From a virus, in the IMG/VR virus record IMGVR_UViG_3300035181_001203, positions 1-64,000 of that record: 64,000 bases of DNA. One strand, given 5' to 3'. Under the pieces are notes generated by a model. It was not told the DNA's origin. It saw only the letters and a program-made list of their open reading frames with translations, and ran no database searches. How positions within the stretch are numbered: position 1 is the first letter of the stretch; every line of letters begins with the position of its first letter. This document shows positions 1,557 through 18,866 of the stretch, in pieces. The position numbers were made by a program, and so were the translations under genes.

Positions 1557-3319
1557 AGTGAACCAAGATTATAACTAATATTATCCAAAGCAAAAATAGC
1601 TTGGGTTAATTGCGTTTCATCTATATTGAATAAAGTACGATTCATACGTTTAATGATTAATAGTTTACATAGACGATCTAACATTTCATATAGATCAGGA
1701 ATTAAAAGTTTAAATCGTTTAATATTATTATAAGTAACAAGATTTAAACCTAAAGCTAAGTCAATATTAGACTTATCGCCACTTGCTAAAGCTACTTTTA
1801 AAAGATCTGAATCTTCTGTAATTTTATTAATTACTGATGCCATTTTAGTTAATTTTTCATCTTTAACTTCTTCTTTACTTTCTTTTGCATTCCCTTGGAA
1901 AGTATAAACACCATCTTTTTCTGCATTCATTAAAGCATATCTAGCATCATCATGAGATAAGCCACATCTTACTAAAACGACTATTGCATCATTTTTACCT
2001 AAATCTTTTAATTTAGTACTATCAATACCACTAATTCCCGCATCATTAATAGTAAATTTATTATTAAGCTGTTTTGTAATCTTAACTGTCAAACCAGCAT
2101 TTTTAATTACGTCTTCAGGAGTTCTAATCCAATCAGCATGCATATCATCTGGATATACTTTTACTAAATTAGCAAAAGATGAAATTAAATAATTTTTAGG
2201 ATCTAAAGGTATAATTGTTTTAATATCAGAAGAAGTTCTAAGATTAATATTATCAAGAGAATCAGTTAATACGGAATAAATTTTATCTCCACCCATATTG
2301 GATATACTATTAATATAGAATGGACCATAAAAATTATCGCCAATAACAATACCAGCATAATCACCAGCTTTGGCTTGTTCAGTATGAATTTCCATTCCTC
2401 CATCTTGGTTTTCTCTTGCAACTAAAGAACCCATATATCGTGGCAAATATTTACCACATTCTGTTATAATAATATTGCTATCAGTGGAATTATTTTTTTC
2501 GGTTAAAGAAGATAATCTAAAATGATTAAATGAACGAGCTTTAACATACTCTCCATTTATATCAACAAATCCTATTCTATTTTTAGTTTGTTTAAAATTA
2601 TTTTTTAACTCTTTTTTATCTATCTCTAATACAACTTTAGGAGGCATGCTTGAAATAATCATATCTTTATCATACATTAATTTTGTAACAACTTCTTTTC
2701 CAAACTTTTTAGCAAATTCAGATAATTTATATTCTACGTCTGGATTTTTAATATCTCTTACAACTATTGGTTTATTAGAAGAAGCTTCTTTAATAAATAC
2801 TCTAGCTACATACTCTTCGTCATTACTTGGAATATTTCTATTACAAAATTCTTCAATAATTTCAGGGTATTCTTCAGCAATCTTCTGAAGAGTATCTTTA
2901 TGTTTTTCAATAAAATTAATTTTGATATCGCCTGTATCCTCAAAAAGCGATGCCGTTTTAAGAAGTTGTCCCCTTTCAGATTGGGATACAAGTTTAAAAG
3001 GCCACGTTCGTTTTTCTATTAGATTAATGGAATTCTCTGTTAGTGGCAGATACTTCCCATTGTCAATATAAATATCTAATGGATTTAACTCGTATTCATC
3101 AATAATAAAAGGAATACGTTGTGGCTTTCCAATCATAGAGATATAGCCTACGGCATTTCCTTTGATTGGATCAACTTTGGCAAATGTTACATCGCCAACC
3201 AATTTTGAAAGCGTCGGAAATTTGGAAATCAGATGATTTACAATCTGATCACCCCAAGAATTAGAATCCGATGTTAAACGGACACTAGTGTTAACGGAAA
3301 ATAAATCGCTTAATGACAT
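1553..3319 (-). CDS. Putative virion/head protein rich in KxA motifs
   Basis: Likely start ATG 3319 (GGAG upstream). Contains LLKTAS, LQKIAE, FIKEAS, VIKNAG, LTKMAS, LLKVAL. Confidence 0.55.
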   Translation of the reverse strand: MSLSDLFSVNTSVRLTSDSNSWGDQIVNHLISKFPTLSKLVGDVTFAKVDPIKGNAVGYISMIGKPQRIPFIIDEYELNPLDIYIDNGKYLPLTENSINLIEKRTWPFKLVSQSERGQLLKTASLFEDTGDIKINFIEKHKDTLQKIAEEYPEIIEEFCNRNIPSNDEEYVARVFIKEASSNKPIVVRDIKNPDVEYKLSEFAKKFGKEVVTKLMYDKDMIISSMPPKVVLEIDKKELKNNFKQTKNRIGFVDINGEYVKARSFNHFRLSSLTEKNNSTDSNIIITECGKYLPRYMGSLVARENQDGGMEIHTEQAKAGDYAGIVIGDNFYGPFYINSISNMGGDKIYSVLTDSLDNINLRTSSDIKTIIPLDPKNYLISSFANLVKVYPDDMHADWIRTPEDVIKNAGLTVKITKQLNNKFTINDAGISGIDSTKLKDLGKNDAIVVLVRCGLSHDDARYALMNAEKDGVYTFQGNAKESKEEVKDEKLTKMASVINKITEDSDLLKVALASGDKSNIDLALGLNLVTYNNIKRFKLLIPDLYEMLDRLCKLLIIKRMNRTLFNIDETQLTQAIFALDNISYNLGSL

Positions 3320-3591: not shown

Positions 3592-6500
3592 TCAGTATCT
3601 TCCACCTGGCCCATCCTCTATTTGGCCTGTTACGAAAGACGCAATTGGAGAATATCCATGTATGTCTGAATCGTATCCATAAGTAGCGCCTTCTTGTAAT
3701 CCGCGTTTTAAATAACGATATCCCATATTAGCTAAAAAATCTCTACTTTTTAACGGAGCTTGTTGAACACCCATTAAAGTTCTATCATAAGATATTGGTT
3801 CATGTTTAACTTCAATTTCTTTATGCTTATGTTTAATTGAATTAATCATAGCGGAGTTGACTCTATCTCCAGCTTTATATCCAGCAACATCTTTAGCTAA
3901 CGTCATGCCATAAGATTCTTCTGGAGATAATTTATGAGTTTCATTTGTTTTTTGATTCCAATTATAAATAGATGAAAGTGGTACTATATCATTTTTAACA
4001 AAATGAGTATGAGTTCCTTCATCTTTTACTATTCCAAATCCAGTCATACCTCTTACTACAGTTTCTAAGTTTCGTCTATCTACCTTAATACCAGAATCAT
4101 TATATAATTTGCTAATTGAATTTGTAATTTTTTGAATTCCTTTAATCTCACCTAAGAGTTTAATTGCATCTTTTGGATGTGGAATACCATAATTTAAAAC
4201 ATCACCTATATTAACATGATCGCCAACTTTTACTACTAAATCTCCAGAATGAGGATTAATAAAGTGTTCTACGTTATCAATATCAACGTGCCAACCACCA
4301 GCAGAACCGGGAGTAATTTTAGTTATCTTTCCTGTTTTAGTAGCCATTGTTGCTTTATTTTTAAAAGTCTCAGGAGCTTGTAAAAAGTTCTGTATATGCT
4401 CAAAACCACCAAAAGCACCACCACCACCTGAAGCTGTTCCTCCAGTATGGAATGTTTTCATAGCAGCTTGAGTTAAAGGTTCAATTATAGCTTGACTAGA
4501 TTTAATACCTACATTATCTCCAATAGGAACTAAATTACCAAATTCATCCATTCCATAACATTTTTGACAAATACCATGTGGAGCTTCACAAGTAGCGGGA
4601 GAGCGTACAGTTACTTCATTATATTTCTTTTTAATAGAATCATAATTAGATTTTGTTACTAAAGTTCCATCAGTTAAATATCTACCAATTAAATAAGGAT
4701 CATCAGTTGACATAGGAATTCCATGATGCGTTTTGCAATCATGTTCTGAAATTACAATATTCATAGTTGTATTAACTACTTCTTTATTTAAAGCTCCAGG
4801 TTTAGAAGTCATTAATTGTTTATCTAATGATCCTTTACGAGCAGAATATAAAGTTGTCCAGTAATCTGCAAAAGGCATACCTTGACCATAATTAGAAAGA
4901 ACTGGTCTAAGAATTACCTCACCATTATGGTCCGTCATCATTCCTGGAGCAAAATTAATAGAAGAAACATTATTTGATGAACCCTTACTTCCTGAAACTA
5001 CAATTTTAACAAAATTATTTGAAAGATCATTAAGAGAAGAATCTTTCATTGCCTTATCAGCTTTAAGTAAAGATTCTTTTTTAATTTTATCAGATACATT
5101 AGAATTAAGAATTTTCATAGCACTACTAAAGTGCTTATTAACTTCTTTTGAATTGTCGGGAAGATCAGCTAATGATAATGAGAATCCAGCCTTAGTGCCA
5201 TACTCATCACCTAACTCTTTTAATTTAGTTACTACTTCACTATATTTATCTGGATGCTTTTCAGCTAATGATTCTAATGTTTTTGTAATAGAAGTTTTAT
5301 TAGCTTCTTTTTCTATGTGATTAATATCAGCAGGAAATAATTTATTTATTTCTGCTAATCCTTTAGGTGTTTTAGATAATAAATATAATCCGATAACCGC
5401 TTCTTGATCAGGTGTATAATTAAGTGTACGCGCCCTCGGATTATATAAATTTTTGCTAGGTAATAAAGAGAAAGATTCTTTTCTAGCTTTTTCTGTAGCA
5501 GGAACATGAAGCACAAGAGTATCGCCATCATAATCAAGACTAAATGGCTTAACAATAATTCCAGGGGTTTCAATTGATAATCCTTTAGTTAATGTTGGTT
5601 GAAAAGCCATAATGGAAAATTTATGTAATGATGGAGCCCGATTCATTAATACTGGGCGATCAGACATTGCAGCTTGAACTGCCTTCTTTCCAATTTCAGT
5701 AAAATTATCAATATGTTCTTCAGCTTCTTTATGTTTATATCCTTGATTTATTAATTCTTTAATAGCAAAAGGTTTATAAATTACTTTAGCCATTTTTTCA
5801 GGAATCGCAATTTGATCCATGTTAAGATTATTATTTAGAATTGCAGTTGCTCTACCAGAAAGATCTTGTTGTTTTCTCAATACTTTGCTTTGAAAGAAAC
5901 CGTGCTTAGGACTTGATTGATTTGTAATAATATTAACTACACCCTTAACTTCTTTCATTTCATTCTGTTTTGATATAGGAGTCATTAATCCTTGAATAGC
6001 TCCAAGTGCTTGATATAATGTGTTAGATAATTCTTTTGTTTGTCCAAATTCTTTTATAGCTTCATTTGTTAAACCTAAATCTCTGTATAAATAATTTAAT
6101 GAATGCGTCTGTAAAGCGCCCCCTGGAAGTTCAAATACAGGTCTGAACTGTGGAGGGATAACAGGCACAACTGAAGTAGTATAAGCTTCATCTGGTTTCA
6201 TTTTTAAACTATCTAATGACTTAAAGATTTTTAACTTTTTGAGCATTATATCTTTTTTTGTCTTTGGCGCAGTTTTTATAGCATTTAATAAATTATCTAT
6301 TTGCTCTTTTACATTGATTTCTGATAACATTTTTTTAATTTTTTCATGACCATTATCTTCGTTGATTATATTTTTAAATTCAGAATCTTTTAAGTCAAGA
6401 ATAGTTTTTACAGCACCTTCAAACATAGGATTTACAACTGGATGTACTAATGTAATTTTAGACCACTTTTGTCCATTAGATCCACCAGTTTTTCCAATAT

Positions 6501-9500
6501 CAAATAATCCACCTTTTATTGGTTCTAGATTATGATCAAGCATTCTAAAGTTTTCAATCTCATTATTTCCAGCTAATTTTAAACTATCTTTATCTGTTAA
6601 TGGTGTTAGGATTTTTTTAGATCCATCGTTACGAACATTAACACCAGCAGCATTAAGAAGTCCTTCAAACTTCTTATAAACAAATGGAATTTGAGGTTTT
6701 GGTAATGGCAATCCATTTTGTAAATTTTGCCAGAATTGAGCATTACCATCACCCTTAATGGTTGAAATTTCATTAAGAATTCCTCTTGCTCCATGAGAAA
6801 GCAATCCATAAAGCGTTAATTGATCAATAGCCTTAGAGCCATCATCGCCACCTTTAATTGGTTTATTATCTATATCATATGTGCCAGTATCTCTGGCTGA
6901 TAAGTTCCCTTTTGCTACTTTGAAAAGTTTTTCAACATAAGGCTGTCCTACCATAATCTGACCAAAACTTTTTCCAGTTTTAGGATCAAATAATTCTTCG
7001 GTATCAGAAATATTATGCTTCTTCAATTCTTTTTTTAATTTATCTAATTCGTTGTGTTCAGCAAAGTTTTGAACTACATAAGGACGACCAGTCTTTAATG
7101 CAATTTTACTAGCTGAATTTTCTAGCATCTGTCCTATACTCATACGAGTAATAACGCTTAATGGACTAATAATTACTTCAGTAGATTTTCCATCTTTTGA
7201 TTGTGGCATTTCGTTATCTGGAACTATTGCAGTAATTACGCCTTTATTCCCATGACGTAAAGCGAGTTTATCTCCTGGTAAAGCAGGAGATTCATATTTG
7301 CCATGAATTTTAATATTCTTACTATTATAAACTGCTTTAGTTATTACTCCAGGAACTAATTGATCCCATGTTCTAGAAACATCTTTGTATGGTTGGACTA
7401 AAGATTTATGCAATCTATTTAAAATTAAATCTTCATTTGTTCCAGATGCTTTTTGTAATACTAAAGCATATGGATCACCTGGCTCTAAAATAACATTCTG
7501 TTTTGCGAGTCCATTATCATCAATCTTATCTAATTGTGCTTTTGTATATTTTGTAGGATACATTGAAACAAATTTCTTCTTATCTACAATAATAGAATGA
7601 TCATCTTTTTCAATATAATCTTGATACATATGATTTGAAGTTAATTTTTTTGCTCCAGTTTCAGAAACTACAATACCATCTTCAAAATTTAATCCCTTCC
7701 AAGGCATATATGCTAATCTCATATTAGTGCCTAAAGCCAAAGTACCATTTCTTGTAAAATTAGAGTCAGCAATTACATCGCCATTTTTAAAAGAATCACC
7801 CTTTTTAAGATGCTCAATTTCATGATGCATATATGATTTATTTTGTAGATCATAATTATTAAATAAAGGTAATTGATAAACTTTTCCTGACTTACCCTTA
7901 AAAGTTAAATGTGATTTTGAAATATCTTCGATTACTCCATCTTCAGGAGCTATCAATGTAATATCATGAGCAGAACCAAAATAATGTTCTACAGTTTGAT
8001 TTTTTTCTATTGGAGATTGTATTTGGACTAATGGAGCTTCACGATGTTTTAAAGAAATAGCTTGGGTAATATGTCTAGAAGCCATACCTGCTCTATTACC
8101 CTGATTATAATTTAATGACGGTAAAGCCTGTGATGACATTGTGAAAGCAGCATGACTAGAAGGAAGTTGATGGGTAATATTTGATGCATTAGTTTCAATT
8201 TGTTTACCTTCTTTAATTGCAGTTACGTTACCTTTTAATACTTGATCTGGTAAAGCAATAGTATGATGATAAGCATCAATAGCACTTACATATTCAGTTT
8301 TCCCAGTTTTAACATTTTTTAATTTAGTTTCTAAATCATTGCCTGCTTTTCTAGTATTAACTGTTAAGTTTAATGTTACACCAATCTTTTTAGACTCTGG
8401 AGTATTAATAGGATCTAAAAACCCTAAATGAGTTGGATGTAATGCCTGTGAATCAGCCATGATTGATTCAGCATTTTCAATACCACCTTCACCAGTAATT
8501 GTAGTTTTATAACTAGCATTAATAATTGATAATGGATTAATTTGTGAAGGGATTTCAGATAATGCAGCAGAATTAAAGAAAGAAAATATATGCTGATTAA
8601 TATGGCCTGAATGCATAATGTTTTCAAGCTTATCACTTTTCTTCATTTTATTTTCAATATCAAATTGTATTTTTCTACGATTTTTATTTAATCGTTCACC
8701 AATAAAATCTTCTACAGTGTGAATAGTTTTAAATGCTAAAGCATCACGATCATCAGGTTCCTCTAATCCACGAGAAACATTAACAACTTTTTCAAAACCA
8801 CGCAATAAAGCTCTACCATCTAAATGACTAAATTCTTTTCCTAAAGTAATTTTAGTTACTTTAGGATCTAGTTTAGCATTTGATAATTCTGTGGCTAATT
8901 GACTTGAAATCTCTGCATGACTACTTGGAAGCTCAAGTTTTGGATTTACAGATTTAAAGAAACGTTTAATCTCTTCATCTGATTTATTACCTAATATTTT
9001 AATATTAGCGTTATAAACATCTTCACCAAAGGCTTTTTTAATTTCAGTATCATTGATTCCAAGAATTCTTAAAACAGGTATTGCCTTAATATTAGCTTGA
9101 TTAACATTAATTTCAAGTTTTTTAGTTAATGGATCTACAGATAATCTTAAATTTTTAAAACCATTTGGATTTATATGTGCTTCAATCTCACCATTTTGTT
9201 TAATACGAGAATAAATACCAGGGCGTAATCTTAATTGGTTATCAATATTATATTCAGTTCCTTGAACTACATATGTCCCTGAATTAGTCAAAACAGGAAT
9301 AGTTGCAATTTTTTGATGCTTCTTGTCTAAAATATTTCCTTTACTATCTTTAAGAATAACATCACCATATAAATTTATTCCATAAGTTTTATCATGTGCT
9401 TTAGCTTCAGAGATAGCATGATAATTTCTTGGATCTGCTTCATCAAATCCCTTTGTTACGATATTTTTAATTTCTAAAGTTTTTCCTCCAGCTTGGATAG

Positions 9501-9573
9501 GAAAAATATTATTAATATTATTCTCAACTACATTTGCTATTTTCTTGGTTTGCTCAATCGGTGATAATAACAT
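3592..9573 (-). CDS. rpoBC: Multisubunit-type DNA-directed RNA polymerase, fused beta-beta' single polypeptide
   Basis: Beta motifs: HLGFLDPINTPES, AYMPWKGLNFEDGIVVSE, GDKLALRHGNKGVI, RMSIGQMLE. Beta' motifs: PVIPPQFRP, LMNRAPSLHKFSIMAF, catalytic DYDGD, SGSKGS, RSPATC..CQKCYG, EPLTQAAMKTFHTGG. Confidence 0.97.
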   Translation of the reverse strand: MLLSPIEQTKKIANVVENNINNIFPIQAGGKTLEIKNIVTKGFDEADPRNYHAISEAKAHDKTYGINLYGDVILKDSKGNILDKKHQKIATIPVLTNSGTYVVQGTEYNIDNQLRLRPGIYSRIKQNGEIEAHINPNGFKNLRLSVDPLTKKLEINVNQANIKAIPVLRILGINDTEIKKAFGEDVYNANIKILGNKSDEEIKRFFKSVNPKLELPSSHAEISSQLATELSNAKLDPKVTKITLGKEFSHLDGRALLRGFEKVVNVSRGLEEPDDRDALAFKTIHTVEDFIGERLNKNRRKIQFDIENKMKKSDKLENIMHSGHINQHIFSFFNSAALSEIPSQINPLSIINASYKTTITGEGGIENAESIMADSQALHPTHLGFLDPINTPESKKIGVTLNLTVNTRKAGNDLETKLKNVKTGKTEYVSAIDAYHHTIALPDQVLKGNVTAIKEGKQIETNASNITHQLPSSHAAFTMSSQALPSLNYNQGNRAGMASRHITQAISLKHREAPLVQIQSPIEKNQTVEHYFGSAHDITLIAPEDGVIEDISKSHLTFKGKSGKVYQLPLFNNYDLQNKSYMHHEIEHLKKGDSFKNGDVIADSNFTRNGTLALGTNMRLAYMPWKGLNFEDGIVVSETGAKKLTSNHMYQDYIEKDDHSIIVDKKKFVSMYPTKYTKAQLDKIDDNGLAKQNVILEPGDPYALVLQKASGTNEDLILNRLHKSLVQPYKDVSRTWDQLVPGVITKAVYNSKNIKIHGKYESPALPGDKLALRHGNKGVITAIVPDNEMPQSKDGKSTEVIISPLSVITRMSIGQMLENSASKIALKTGRPYVVQNFAEHNELDKLKKELKKHNISDTEELFDPKTGKSFGQIMVGQPYVEKLFKVAKGNLSARDTGTYDIDNKPIKGGDDGSKAIDQLTLYGLLSHGARGILNEISTIKGDGNAQFWQNLQNGLPLPKPQIPFVYKKFEGLLNAAGVNVRNDGSKKILTPLTDKDSLKLAGNNEIENFRMLDHNLEPIKGGLFDIGKTGGSNGQKWSKITLVHPVVNPMFEGAVKTILDLKDSEFKNIINEDNGHEKIKKMLSEINVKEQIDNLLNAIKTAPKTKKDIMLKKLKIFKSLDSLKMKPDEAYTTSVVPVIPPQFRPVFELPGGALQTHSLNYLYRDLGLTNEAIKEFGQTKELSNTLYQALGAIQGLMTPISKQNEMKEVKGVVNIITNQSSPKHGFFQSKVLRKQQDLSGRATAILNNNLNMDQIAIPEKMAKVIYKPFAIKELINQGYKHKEAEEHIDNFTEIGKKAVQAAMSDRPVLMNRAPSLHKFSIMAFQPTLTKGLSIETPGIIVKPFSLDYDGDTLVLHVPATEKARKESFSLLPSKNLYNPRARTLNYTPDQEAVIGLYLLSKTPKGLAEINKLFPADINHIEKEANKTSITKTLESLAEKHPDKYSEVVTKLKELGDEYGTKAGFSLSLADLPDNSKEVNKHFSSAMKILNSNVSDKIKKESLLKADKAMKDSSLNDLSNNFVKIVVSGSKGSSNNVSSINFAPGMMTDHNGEVILRPVLSNYGQGMPFADYWTTLYSARKGSLDKQLMTSKPGALNKEVVNTTMNIVISEHDCKTHHGIPMSTDDPYLIGRYLTDGTLVTKSNYDSIKKKYNEVTVRSPATCEAPHGICQKCYGMDEFGNLVPIGDNVGIKSSQAIIEPLTQAAMKTFHTGGTASGGGGAFGGFEHIQNFLQAPETFKNKATMATKTGKITKITPGSAGGWHVDIDNVEHFINPHSGDLVVKVGDHVNIGDVLNYGIPHPKDAIKLLGEIKGIQKITNSISKLYNDSGIKVDRRNLETVVRGMTGFGIVKDEGTHTHFVKNDIVPLSSIYNWNQKTNETHKLSPEESYGMTLAKDVAGYKAGDRVNSAMINSIKHKHKEIEVKHEPISYDRTLMGVQQAPLKSRDFLANMGYRYLKRGLQEGATYGYDSDIHGYSPIASFVTGQIEDGPGGRY

Positions 9574-14959: not shown

Positions 14960-15050
14960 GGAAGATTGGCCGAGAGGTTTAAGGCAGCGGCTTTGAATAC
15001 CGCAGATGGTTAATAACTATCCACAGGTTCGAATCCTGTATCTTCCGCCA
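14960..15050 (+). tRNA. tRNA-Ser(TGA)
   Basis: GGAAGAT/ATCTTCC acceptor, long variable arm, GGTTCGAATCC, encoded CCA. Confidence 0.92.
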
Positions 15051-15289
15051 TTATATTTCAATAGAAGAGAACCTGACTATTATTCCCGTTCTTGAAACGG
15101 GCAATGCTCCTAGTTTCATTGGATGGGGTATAACTAGGCACGTTTTTTCAATGTCTTTTTTCGTAGACTAACCTGGAAGCTTAGTCATAAAAAGACTGTT
15201 AACGACCCTCTGCACAGGCCATCGTTAATTGAGGTTTTTGGTCATCCGAGAAAAAGAAAACCATTAAAAAACCTAATCTAGACGAATAA

Positions 15290-15853
15290 ATGGATCTTCT
15301 GATAATGGAAAAATATTTAAGAAATAGAGATAATATGCATTATTCATTAGGTTTTAATATTTTGAAGCCACAATATAAAATTACTTATTGGAAATTTTGG
15401 ACTCATGTTCTTAACCCTCGCACATACTGGCGATTGGTAAAGAATTTTTGTTATCGTGGATTTTATGGATATTCAAAAGAAGATTATTGGGATGGTGAAA
15501 GTTATCTAGAATCAGTAATCTATGGAATTATTAAAGATCTTCGAGAAAATCATATTAATCATCCATCCAATCTTTCAAATGAATCTTGGAATTCTATTTT
15601 AGATGAAATAATCGAAGGTTTAGAGGCAGCGAGTGAGTTGAGAATGGAAGATACGGTTCCTAAAGGAATCTATTCTGAGGGACCGTGGAAGTTTGTTCCA
15701 TCTGAACATGATCCAAAACTTTTCAAGATAATTGATGAATCAAATCATGTTTTTGACAAAGAAGGTTACGATAAATGGCAAGCTCCTTTACTCAAAAAAA
15801 GAAAAAGAGCAATGCTGTTAATCTGTAAATATTGGTTAAATTTTTGGGATTGA
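15290..15853 (+). CDS. Hypothetical protein within the tRNA cluster
   Basis: 187-aa Trp-rich ORF with phage-like codon usage. Confidence 0.7.
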   Translation: MDLLIMEKYLRNRDNMHYSLGFNILKPQYKITYWKFWTHVLNPRTYWRLVKNFCYRGFYGYSKEDYWDGESYLESVIYGIIKDLRENHINHPSNLSNESWNSILDEIIEGLEAASELRMEDTVPKGIYSEGPWKFVPSEHDPKLFKIIDESNHVFDKEGYDKWQAPLLKKRKRAMLLICKYWLNFWD

Positions 15854-15865
15854 AATTTTTCTCAT

Positions 15866-15940
15866 CCTCCTGTAGCTTAATGGATTGAGCAGCGCCCTTC
15901 TAAGGCGCGGGTCTAGGTTCGATTCCTAGCAGGAGGACCA
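15866..15940 (+). tRNA. tRNA-Arg(TCT)
   Basis: CCTCCTG/CAGGAGG acceptor, GCGCC-CTTCTAA-GGCGC anticodon arm, CCA. Confidence 0.95.
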
Positions 15941-15944
15941 GTTC

Positions 15945-16134
15945 ATTTTGCAATTTTGATACCTGAGCGATTGTAACTCCCCACTATAGGGATAATCACT
16001 TAAGCCCATTGCAATATCGCAATAGTTTTCATGCTAACCGTGTATTCAATCGGGAGGATGACATTGGACTTCGAGACTCCAGACTAGATTTGCAAATGCC
16101 ATGCTTTTGGCTGAGTATCAATTTATTGCAAAAT
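15945..16134 (+). ncRNA. Putative structured RNA, ~190 nt
   Basis: Closing stems ATTTTGCAAT/ATTGCAAAAT and TTGATAC/GTATCAA enclose internal hairpins; no ORF. Confidence 0.45.
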
Positions 16135-16155
16135 ACTATATTTATTTGTTATAAT
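16128..16155 (+). promoter_or_regulatory. Conserved promoter motif GCAA-N15-TGTTATAA (copy 2), driving large ncRNA
   Basis: GCAAAATACTATATTTATTTGTTATAAT; no RBS or ORF follows. Confidence 0.7.
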
Positions 16156-16159
16156 ATAC

Positions 16160-16975
16160 ATGGGAGAGTATAAACTTTGGAATATTATGGTCTAGGTTTC
16201 GTCAACCTAGTTAATACCTCGATGACAGAGCTATAGAGTCCCACTTTCTGCGGAATTGTGGATTGGCTTTATAGATGAATGGGGAGCCATAATAACCACG
16301 GAATATACTTTCCATAAAGTTTGAAGAGTTCTTTTCAAAAACTCTGTGTTTGGCGGTAGATGAATGACCGTTCCCCTCATAATAGCTTGATTGGGGTTAT
16401 GAGAATGCTGAAGATCAAGCGTTTGACCGTATCGAATAACGGTCTTGTGATTCCCCACAAATAAACAAGAGGGAGCCACCGCTAGGGCTTGCCGTGTTGA
16501 CAAGCGCGCTACTAGGTGGACAAGCAAGTAAAACACATAAGGTGTTGGTCTGCTTACCACAGACTACGGGTTAAAGAATTCCCGTTAAACTTGCAACAGC
16601 CATATATAGATAGGTCTATCGGCGGATAGGTTTATCGAAAATATGGCTCAACTAGTTCAGTCTCGCAAACTGAATTAGTTGCCAGGGCTTGCTAATTAGG
16701 GACGCCTAATAGCAAGAACCTGGGAAACGTTTATCAGTGGCGATTCACTGATGGGTTAAGAAGTTAGCCTGTAAGACCTTTCTATTCTAACGAATAGTAG
16801 GCAAAAAAACTTCAGATACCAACGCCAAGCCTACCTCATCAGGCCGCGTTGAAAATATGGATGAGGGAGTTGCCGGACCTAATAGAAACCGGATAGGGAT
16901 AAGTGCATTTAGAGTTGCAACTCTAAGCCCGAACATATTAAGCCCGAGCAAATGCAAATACTCGGGCGCTTTTCT
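16160..16975 (+). ncRNA. Large multi-domain structured ncRNA, ~810 nt, unassigned
   Basis: Visibly GC-richer than coding DNA, nested long-range helices, many hairpins, own promoter, 3' hairpin plus U-rich tail. Confidence 0.7.
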
Positions 16976-17094
16976 GAAAGGATCACTTCGGAGCTAGTAC
17001 AATCATCGGATTGTATTAATTCCATACCCGGAAGTGATCCTTTGAGAGAAGAATTTTTAAAAATCAAGTTTTCAACGTAAAGAATAATAATAAT

Positions 17095-17182
17095 GCGGCT
17101 GTGGCGGAATCGGTAGACGCTACAGACTTAAAATCTGTCGTAGGTAAACTACATGCCGGTTCGAGTCCGGCCAGCCGCACCA
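17095..17182 (+). tRNA. tRNA-Leu(TAA)
   Basis: GCGGCTG/CAGCCGC acceptor, ACAGA-CTTAAAA-TCTGT, long variable arm, CCA. Confidence 0.95.
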
Positions 17183-17195
17183 AAAAATACACCAA

Positions 17196-17700
17196 GGATT
17201 GAGAGCTTGCTTAAATGCAAATCTACGGATGCTCGAAACTGATCGTCAATGGTGGTAGCCCGATAAGATTAACTCGGGCAAACTTCACGTTCTCAATTCC
17301 AAGTCTGACGAACGGAAGTGTAATGACTTGGGTAAGGTCCACGCACTTTAAGACCTTTGGGGGTAGGGACAAGTGGATTAAAACCCCTCGTGCAAGTTTG
17401 GGAGACTGTAAAGATGCTTAAGGCATCTGTAAGCTGATTCAAAGGCCCTTGAGTAAAGGCTGTAATTTAATGGAAGCGCGGCATCCATTTTAGTTTCGTA
17501 AGGGGGGAGCGAAAGCTGAGAACCTTGTGCGAGATATGCCGATTAACAAGAAAGGTAGCCTAAGCTTATAAGTTAAGACCACTTCCAGGGTGCAAGGCTC
17601 TGGCTTGCATTAATGCAGACATTAAGTAGGCGTTTCATGAAACGCACAACTTAATACCGATAAAAGTTCTGCAATAGCCAATCAATTCGGTGATATTGGC
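17196..17700 (+). ncRNA. Large structured ncRNA, ~510 nt, between tRNA-Leu and tRNA-Lys, unassigned
   Basis: Multiple helices plus a long-range loop pairing GGAAGTG/CACTTCC; no credible ORF. Confidence 0.65.
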
Positions 17701-17709
17701 AAACTTTAT

Positions 17710-17786
17710 GGAACCTTAGCTCAGTTGGTTAGAGCATCTGACTTTTAATCAGAGGGTGCCGGGTTCGATTCCCGGAGGTTCCACCA
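17710..17786 (+). tRNA. tRNA-Lys(TTT)
   Basis: GGAACCT/AGGTTCC acceptor, TCTGA-CTTTTAA-TCAGA, CCA. Confidence 0.95.
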
Positions 17787-17788
17787 AT

Positions 17789-18123
17789 AACCAAGTGTCC
17801 TGCATTCCAGGACTCGATATGCATAATCGCAGCTTGGTTTTTCGGAGAAGAGACTTACCGTGAGGAAGTCAACAAACTGGTGTTAAGGGATTACACCTTC
17901 TCCGAATAGAATCGCTATTAAATTCTGGTGAAGATTTAATAGCAAGCTTGTTGTCTGCTAGTGGCAACTGAAAAAACTCTTCTTACAGGAAGAGTTTAAA
18001 CTAGCTATCAAATCCTGGTTATTAGGAATGACAAAAAGGTGTAGTCTGACAGCTACATTCCCACAAATCATTCGCCTTGTCAGGGGAAACCGAAATCAAT
18101 ATGATTTCCGGCAGGATTTGATA
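17789..18123 (+). ncRNA. Series of small structured RNA elements
   Basis: Closed domains at 17789-17839, 17841-17906 and 18006-18123, plus three simple hairpins. Confidence 0.5.
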
Positions 18124-18142
18124 TACTAACAGAATATCACTT

Positions 18143-18218
18143 GCGCCTATAGCTCAGCGGTCAGAGCTGGCGGCTCATAACCGCTTGGTCCTAGGTTCGA
18201 ATCCTAGTAGGCGCACCA
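18143..18218 (+). tRNA. tRNA with CAT anticodon (probably Ile2/lysidine type; elongator Met not excluded)
   Basis: GCGCCTA/TAGGCGC acceptor, GGCGG-CTCATAA-CCGCT; paired 1:72, so not an initiator. Confidence 0.9.
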
Positions 18219-18299
18219 TCTATTTTTTTACTTTTCGCTATTCACAGGAGAACATATAAAAAAATGCACAACAAACTTCATTAAAACAAGTTTTATTAT

Positions 18300-18375
18300 T
18301 GGGGGGTGGCGGAGTGGTTAACGCGGCAGACTTTGACTCTGTTTTTCCTAGGTTCGAGTCCTAGCCCCCCAACCA
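18300..18375 (+). tRNA. tRNA-Gln(TTG)
   Basis: TGGGGGG/CCCCCCA acceptor, GCAGA-CTTTGAC-TCTGT, CCA. Confidence 0.93.
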
Positions 18376-18520
18376 ACAACGCAAGCGGTAATTGTTATCA
18401 ACGTTTGTGGGCATCGTATAAACCTTCTTTTTTTTAATTTTCTATATAGATGAAACGTGTTCTCAAGTAAACAGCATTCATTTATTAAAGCTTATGAAGA
18501 ATCAAACATTCATGAAGCAT

Positions 18521-18555
18521 AAAAAAGGCCCCGAAAGGGGCCTTCTCTTTTTTTT
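18521..18555. terminator. Bidirectional intrinsic terminator
   Basis: A6-GGCCCC-GAAA-GGGGCC-TTCTCTTTTTTTT between the convergent RNA island and tail genes. Confidence 0.85.
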
Positions 18556-18569
18556 AGCTATTCAATAAA

Positions 18570-18866
18570 TTAACCAATGGCTCTGCGAACAGCCCCAGCA
18601 ACAGCAGGAGTCGGAAATACTTTCGATATACGCTCTTTAATTAAAGCAGCATCTTCAACTTCTAATTCGCCATTTCCAGACCAAACGGCTTCACCGATGC
18701 GATCAAGCTTGATTTTCGCATCAAGAGAAAGAGCAGCATCTTCCTGTAAAGGTGATTTAAGAGCTAAAGTAATGACATCTTTTAAAGTCAAGTTAGGTGA
18801 ATTTTCATTTAGCTTAAGTGGTTCACCCGTAAAGTCTTTCAGTTCTTGTGAGAAATCAATCTTCAC
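18570..18866 (-). CDS. Hypothetical protein (tail-module associated)
   Basis: GTG start with AGGAG RBS; TGCCATAAT upstream. Confidence 0.65.
   Translation of the reverse strand: MKIDFSQELKDFTGEPLKLNENSPNLTLKDVITLALKSPLQEDAALSLDAKIKLDRIGEAVWSGNGELEVEDAALIKERISKVFPTPAVAGAVRRAIG

Follow-up and report, generated by a model that had tools for sequence, protein, structure and literature searches.

What lies between the six transfer RNA (tRNA) genes at positions 14960–18555 of a 64,000-nucleotide (nt) stretch of viral DNA, and do the long sequences that separate these genes function as RNAs in their own right? The stretch, called the window below, comprises positions 1 to 64,000 of the IMG/VR virus record IMGVR_UViG_3300035181_001203, a viral record of 112,653 bases with a completeness estimate of 72%. 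An earlier note, made from the letters of the window, had read the interval as an operon of structured non-coding RNAs punctuated by tRNAs. Our own reading, which we hold to be probably correct, is that the island is a phage tRNA cluster in which the long spacers encode stable folded RNAs that tRNA processing sets free. Judged from the genomes of the three phages in which they were found, these RNAs are non-coding and conserved, are held by compensatory base pairs, and have been swapped as cassettes among the three.

A large folded RNA ahead of tRNA-Leu

Spacers and parts of spacers were folded and compared with dinucleotide shuffles, the deviation being expressed as z, and 24 coding pieces of 350 nt each from the same window were folded as controls (mean z -0.9, standard deviation 1.6, minimum -3.9). 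The spacer at 16160–17094 (935 nt), which ends directly at tRNA-Leu and is called the large RNA below, reached a z of -12.5, far outside the coding controls, and its parts gave -4.2 (16163–16312), -7.4 (16314–16815) and -7.0 (16973–17094). For the spacer at 17787–18142 (356 nt) the z was -6.3, with -4.9, -3.7 and -4.5 for its three successive parts. When the large RNA was folded from the opposite strand, the energy was less favourable by 30 kcal/mol although z was similar; promoter, tRNAs and G-U pairs determine the strand of the RNA.

The RNAs are non-coding. Stop-free runs were measured in all frames under the standard code and with TGA, TAG or TAA read as sense, and under none of these four codes was any frame in the large spacers open for more than 153 codons, while control genes were fully open (code 11). 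The 53 substitutions that separate the window from the related contig L008, introduced below, fell 17, 17 and 19 times on the three codon positions. A reading of the region as protein-coding, with frames masked by frameshifts or an alternative genetic code, has the unusual composition of the region in its favour and nothing else. It is virtually out of the question, given that no long frame appears under reassignment of TGA, TAG or TAA, that the substitutions show no codon periodicity, and that ARAGORN called no suppressor tRNA.

The Rfam search that the earlier note had proposed was made with Rfam 15, both at gathering score and at E-values (E) up to 10, and returned tRNAs and no other RNA family in the island. 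By the models of Rfam, these are previously uncatalogued RNA families. Within the window, no group I intron (RF00028) was found by Rfam or by ARAGORN with introns allowed, no transfer-messenger RNA (tmRNA, RF00023) by Rfam or ARAGORN, and no match to an Rfam model of a ribozyme of the hepatitis delta virus (HDV) type.

Relatives were sought by way of the neighbouring sigma-factor gene, alone and as an alignment, and by way of DNA patterns taken from the RNA. In the viral, metagenome and genome collections scanned, two further lineages carry the RNAs, both of them uncultured phages: a viral contig of 88.8 kb (L008/L019, hereafter L008) and a complete genome of 157 kb with terminal repeats (L007/L020, G001; hereafter L007). 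The three metagenome contigs of the latter are identical and therefore add no covariation. The sigma-factor anchor gave two related viral contigs and no more, and five DNA patterns run over the viral, metagenome and genome collections returned the same two lineages and chance matches. No match to the RNA patterns was found in bacterial genome contigs, cultured phages matched the tRNAs only and none of the RNAs, and the gene for a protein of 187 amino acids (aa) in the island, used as an anchor, found no relatives among viral contigs. We know of no phage isolate for these RNAs.

In all three phages the sigma-factor gene faces the tRNA island, and a promoter of the same type is followed by 0.94–1.0 kb of RNA free of open reading frames (ORFs) and then by tRNA-Leu(UAA). 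The RNA between promoter and tRNA-Leu again folded better than its shuffles (z -12.1 in L008, -4.7 in L007). The sigma factor of L007 is 58% identical to that of the window. Two further elements were observed in the islands of the relatives. L008 encodes a full tmRNA at 2894–3301 on the - strand (RF00023, 90.9 bits), for which ARAGORN also reports a tag peptide. In L007, the tRNA-Leu(UAA) at 2944–3244 (- strand) is split at anticodon-loop position 35 by a group I intron of 214 nt (Rfam 47.2 bits, E 1.7e-10, just below the gathering score; detected by ARAGORN with introns allowed), the classical intron site of tRNA-Leu(UAA).

Modules, compensatory changes and exchange

The large RNA is composite. 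Its B unit (16812–16973, + strand) is predicted to be a double-pseudoknot module of 160 nt (model R1, 186 bits) that sits ahead of tRNA-Leu and includes a hairpin with a palindromic 4-nt loop. In the first pseudoknot a loop enclosed by two 5' stems pairs downstream. In the second, the last hairpin has a 12-nt loop, which pairs with the strand immediately ahead of the third hairpin. The window has one copy, ~92% identical to both copies of L008, which flank the X and A segments there; L007 has one copy, placed before A. In a model-guided alignment of these four copies, 8 of the 27 nested pairs were changed on both sides, a number of compensatory pairs that no shuffle out of 500 attained; the maximum in slid controls was 2. 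When checked helix by helix, all eight helices, both pseudoknots included, were fully paired in each of the four copies, and in the copy of L007 seven of the eight have different letters with the pairing kept.

Upstream of B lies the A unit with the hairpins that follow it (16443–16811, + strand; core 16443–16529, body to ~16700). It matches L007 (nhmmer E 1e-9), and copies of its core (model R2) were found once in the window, once in L008 and twice in L007. Comparison of the window or L008 with L007 showed 18 of 73 predicted pairs to be compensatory. The covariation in homologous loci that the earlier note had proposed to look for is present in both A and B, and, being relative to L007, it shows long-term constraint on the folds. 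The X region (16316–16442, + strand), ahead of A, is predicted to form five hairpins; together with the start of A (16316–16491, 176 nt) it is 100% identical to L008, and the block of X, A and B as a whole (16316–16972) is 92.6% identical. Where pairs of X and A differ between the window and L008, two changed on both sides, seven were kept through a one-sided change and four were broken, which is a weak signal.

The two ends of the large RNA were found in the window phage only. D1 (16163–16312, + strand) is closed by a stem of 9 base pairs (bp); sequence searches found no homolog of it in L008 or L007, and the pseudoknot motif described below occupies its position in both. At the other end, a long imperfect hairpin (16973–17047) with an AU-rich tail makes up 16973–17094 (+ strand); in L008 a B unit directly adjoins tRNA-Leu, with no long hairpin between them.

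Further modules stand between the tRNAs downstream. M4 (17787–17909, + strand), a trailer of ~125 nt predicted to fold into two stem-closed domains, begins directly after the CCA of tRNA-Lys in the window and in L008 alike. Its spacer alone matched L008 with an nhmmer E of 4e-25, tRNA-Lys together with M4 gave a blastn match of 83% identity, and two of its hairpins show compensatory changes. It is followed by three hairpins (17913–18005, + strand), for which no homolog was found, and by the pseudoknot motif (18006–18124, + strand), which has a closing stem of 12 bp and, inside it, a hairpin with a 6-nt loop that would pair with a downstream hexamer. In L007 this motif forms the first domain behind the promoter, and in L008 a looser form of it does. 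The helices of the motif were examined by hand with a script, and L007 shows joint changes in the loop and in its downstream partner. M3 (17282–17387, + strand) is identical to L008 at 106 of 106 nt (blastn), between flanks that are unalignable. It offers no variation, so its fold, possibly an H-type pseudoknot, rests on a reading of the sequence.

Module order, copy number and position differ among the three phages, and the modules are therefore regarded as independent cassettes. The earlier note had raised the possibility of an undescribed RNA-based system; that the parts would make up one such integrated system does not agree with this variation. That all spacers form one integrated system of cooperating parts would accord with their clustering on one strand ahead of one closing terminator, and with the co-occurrence of several modules in the same three phages. 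It is nevertheless improbable, for L007 is without X, M3 and M4, L008 is without D1, and the window is without a second B or A; the island moreover has an internal promoter, and part of its spacer sequence carries no sign of function.

The conservation between the window and L008 is uneven. RNA blocks are 92.6–100% identical, adjacent protein genes 65%, and, tRNA-Arg apart, the tRNAs in common 71–83%. Blocks of 100% identity with sharp edges lie at 15863–15940 (including tRNA-Arg), 16316–16491 and 17282–17387, amid neighbouring proteins of ~65% identity, and this pattern suggests, from the sequences compared, that RNA cassettes including tRNA-Arg were recently exchanged between phages. Such blocks could also be left by RNA cassettes that are selfish or in decay and that pass between phages infecting the same cell without benefiting the phage, whether as mobile elements, ribozyme-bearing inserts, or intron or tRNA remnants. 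The duplication of B in L008 and of the A core in L007 fits such spread, as does the group I intron in the tRNA-Leu of L007, which adjoins the RNA. A purely selfish origin is all the same very improbable, since compensatory change has preserved the helices even between the window and the distant L007, and the promoter is dedicated and conserved; no homing-endonuclease gene was found, and at E up to 10 the window gave no intron, ribozyme or tRNA-like match.

Several points count against the view of the spacers as stable RNA genes. The earlier note had described nearly all of the spacer sequence as folded and had named folding no better than dinucleotide shuffles as a refutation; the large RNA and 17787–18142 surpass the shuffles clearly, but 17183–17709 does not (z -2.1; parts -2.7, -1.0 and -1.9), its values lying within the coding range, and the other spacers are within the control range as well (15051–15289, -2.6; 15941–16125, -0.2; 18219–18299, -1.6; 18376–18524, -1.3). 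About half of the spacer length, namely 17183–17281, 17388–17709, 15051–15289, 15941–16125 and 18219–18524, is without a homolog and unexceptional in its folding. For the B unit, the nested minimum free energy is no better than that of shuffles (z -0.6), as a pseudoknotted fold would lead one to expect. The lineages number only three, so the covariation rests mainly on one distant relative, and the 100%-identical blocks may reflect recent transfer rather than selection. Finally, the sequence holds no hint of a partner or an activity.

Layout, and proposed transcription and release

All six tRNAs reported in the earlier note were recovered in place on the + strand by ARAGORN and Rfam, in agreement, and each has an encoded CCA, visible also in the sequence. 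They are tRNA-Ser(UGA) at 14960–15050 (Rfam 52.2 bits), tRNA-Arg(UCU) at 15866–15940 (100% identical to its counterpart in L008 by blastn), tRNA-Leu(UAA) at 17095–17182 (directly 3' of the large RNA in all three phages), tRNA-Lys(UUU) at 17710–17786, tRNA-Met(CAU) at 18143–18218 and tRNA-Gln(UUG) at 18300–18375. The note was also right that the island holds one protein gene, the only long ORF being that at 15290–15853. Its statement that the spacers are GC-richer than the genome holds for four of them (15941–16125, 16160–17094, 17183–17709 and 17787–18142, with G+C 0.40–0.44 against 0.318 for the genome and 0.309 for the ORF) but not for 18219–18299 and 18376–18524, which are AT-rich and unstructured.

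Three spacers on the + strand complete the layout. The sequence at 15051–15289 (G+C 0.37), a spacer or the 5' leader of the ORF, has no homolog in L008 or L007 (nhmmer). The 185 nt at 15941–16125 are unstructured filler. In both relatives a small ORF fills the corresponding slot, which lies between tRNA-Arg and the large RNA's promoter, and the two ORFs are homologous (L008 2478–2741, - strand, 87 aa; L007 4275–4681, - strand, 135 aa). The spacer at 17183–17709 (527 nt, G+C 0.435) is free of ORFs and of uncertain status outside M3, where no homology was found in the relatives.

The promoter of the large RNA (16126–16155, + strand) consists of TTGCAA, 18 nt and TATAAT with an extended -10 (10/12 in a consensus scan, with TG), and a matching -10 block stands ahead of the RNA in L008 and L007. 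A 38-nt stretch of this promoter repeats elsewhere in the genome, where a motif search found ~9 copies of the type on the + strand. The remaining copies precede small ORFs with ribosome-binding sites, so this is taken to be a general promoter of the phage. All copies are on the + strand, at 16126, 20261 and 56068 of the window and at 66713, 73606, 84427, 85360, 85648 and 86147 of G000:C1, and they are near-identical (TGCAA, ~17 nt, extended -10 and a conserved AT-rich start region). Four are packed within 1.8 kb at 84.4–86.2 kb; here, beyond the window, ~240 nt of somewhat raised G+C with hairpins and a T-run lie between a promoter and the ORF at 84755 (G000:C1, 84465–84700) and could represent another small RNA or leader RNA.

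A promoter inside the island means at least two transcription units, and the polycistronic operon of the earlier note is not supported as a single unit. The single strong terminator with which the note closed the island is in place. It is an intrinsic, two-sided terminator at 18525–18553, built of an 8-bp GC stem (18525–18544) with an A-run before and a T-run after it; it is the sole convincing terminator of the island, and a homologous one is present in L007. Over 18516–18866, the two-sided terminator is common to a convergent gene on the - strand (18570–18866), and this gene is 93% identical to L008.

If the spacers are RNA genes freed by tRNA processing, the course of events would be as follows. 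Transcription would start at the promoter at 16126 and yield first the composite RNA of ~935 nt (D1, X, A, B and the hairpin), then continue through tRNA-Leu, tRNA-Lys, tRNA-Met and tRNA-Gln until it meets the terminator at 18525, with tRNA-Ser, the 187-aa gene and tRNA-Arg forming an upstream unit. RNase P cutting at the tRNA 5' ends, with 3' trimming to the encoded CCA, would release the spacers as discrete RNAs whose pseudoknot modules (A, B, M3, M4 and the loop-pseudoknot motif) each fold on their own, and the dense pseudoknotted folds would confer stability. Co-transcription with the tRNAs, release by tRNA processing, accumulation and action in trans are steps that we infer; release in this manner is a reasonable step to assume because the RNAs lie on the tRNA strand and adjoin tRNA ends, as may be compared with RNAC and RNAD of phage T4.

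The structured RNA might instead be a cis-acting leader, with trailers, for the tRNAs and have no life after processing; it would then protect the precursor from decay that depends on the 5' end, steer nuclease cuts or set their order, or alter the transcribing polymerase as antitermination RNAs of the put or nut type do. The constant place of the RNA between a strong promoter and tRNA-Leu(UAA) fits this, M4 follows the CCA of tRNA-Lys exactly in two phages, the long perfect stems could serve as RNase III sites, and a phage-encoded RNA polymerase and sigma factor are encoded nearby. We still consider such a leader unlikely. A conserved multi-pseudoknot RNA of ~1 kb goes far beyond the needs of known leaders, the remaining tRNAs of the same islands are without such elements, and the modules vary in copy number and shift relative to the tRNAs, the pseudoknot motif being 5'-terminal in L007 and L008 and lying between tRNA-Lys and tRNA-Met in the window. 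A trans-acting role is favoured over a cis leader because of the autonomy of the modules, the size of the RNA and its dedicated promoter.

For the freed RNAs that we prefer, it may be guessed that in infection they bind host or phage factors, serving as platforms or as decoys, or that they self-assemble like GOLLD and ROOL. More specifically, and only tentatively, the ~1-kb RNA could represent a new giant ornate class of phage RNA, composed of exchangeable pseudoknot cassettes, acting in trans in infection and linked to tRNA-Leu(UAA) by function, not by chance of processing. Were this so, action in trans might take the form of self-assembly through the palindromic loops or of sequestering a host factor of translation or defence. 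The family is tiny. Phage tRNA islands are proving to contain many structured RNAs in addition to tRNAs, and to these the present locus is added. It is well delimited, with a consensus promoter, a 3' boundary at a tRNA, modules of 105–160 nt and natural cassette-swap variants, and it makes testable whether the RNAs are excised by tRNA processing and whether the modules behave as independent units.

The protein gene of the island (15290–15853, + strand) encodes 187 aa, of which the part from Met23 (15356) is conserved. Ten homologs of 45–85% identity share many invariant residues. Their starts correspond to Met23, and the start annotated for the ORF may therefore lie too far upstream; one of the homologs was seen on 29 contigs, which reach 240 kb in length. 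No match was found in Pfam or among PDB sequences, Foldseek gave no fold match for the AlphaFold model (predicted local distance difference test score, pLDDT, 68.6), and PHROGs gave one weak match (E 0.009). The protein gives no clue to the RNAs. Elsewhere in the window, 3592–9573 (- strand) encodes a fused beta-beta' RNA polymerase of 1993 aa. Its nearest cultured relatives, in Vibrio phages D69, D181 and D148, are only ~31% identical, which places the phage in a lineage without a close isolate.

Comparison with known tRNA-associated RNAs

Three kinds of RNA from phage tRNA regions invite comparison. Theta ribozymes are HDV-like ribozymes that lie within a few nt of the 3' end of phage tRNAs, often tRNA-Leu or tRNA-Met, and have been proposed to cut trailers (PMC10879173). 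M4 resembles them in starting right after the CCA of tRNA-Lys. Considered as a theta ribozyme, M4 fits by position (at most 5 nt from the tRNA 3' end) but not by fold or by Rfam: theta ribozymes are minimal HDV-like folds with a nested double pseudoknot, whereas M4 is predicted to consist of two nested stem-closed domains.

The RNAs RNAC and RNAD of phage T4, ~120–140 nt long, are excised from the tRNA precursor by host tRNA-processing enzymes, and they are not known to be pseudoknotted. As in T4, non-tRNA RNA is found here within a tRNA cluster and on the tRNA strand. The main RNA of the window differs in its length of ~0.9 kb and in having its own promoter; the two are compared here by description. 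The T4 RNAs are transcribed from the tRNA region, and their roles are unknown (PMC3014915).

GOLLD and ROOL, to which the earlier note had likened the island, are phage RNAs found near tRNA islands that form cages in vitro and whose role is unknown, and in GOLLD a conserved 3' part follows a 5' part that varies, sometimes with a tRNA inside (10.1101/2024.12.08.627333). The likeness holds as one of kind but not of family. At E up to 10, the island gave no match to GOLLD (RF02032; gathering score 150 bits) or to ROOL (RF03087; gathering score 99.1 bits). The GOLLD model run over the whole 112.7-kb record, with 18 candidates scored, gave none; the whole-record run for ROOL gave nothing either, but control genomes were silent too, and the Rfam search of the island is the stronger negative. 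What is shared is the general character: large non-coding RNAs (0.6–0.8 kb and more) from phages and prophages, rich in pseudoknots and often located next to tRNA islands. The GOLLD-type setting is present, in a viral record with the RNA adjoining tRNA-Leu, and so is the GOLLD-like arrangement of a variable first domain followed by conserved modules, with tRNA-Leu directly after them. In contrast to GOLLD and ROOL, the RNA described here, known from only three uncultured phages, consists of cassettes of changing order and copy number.

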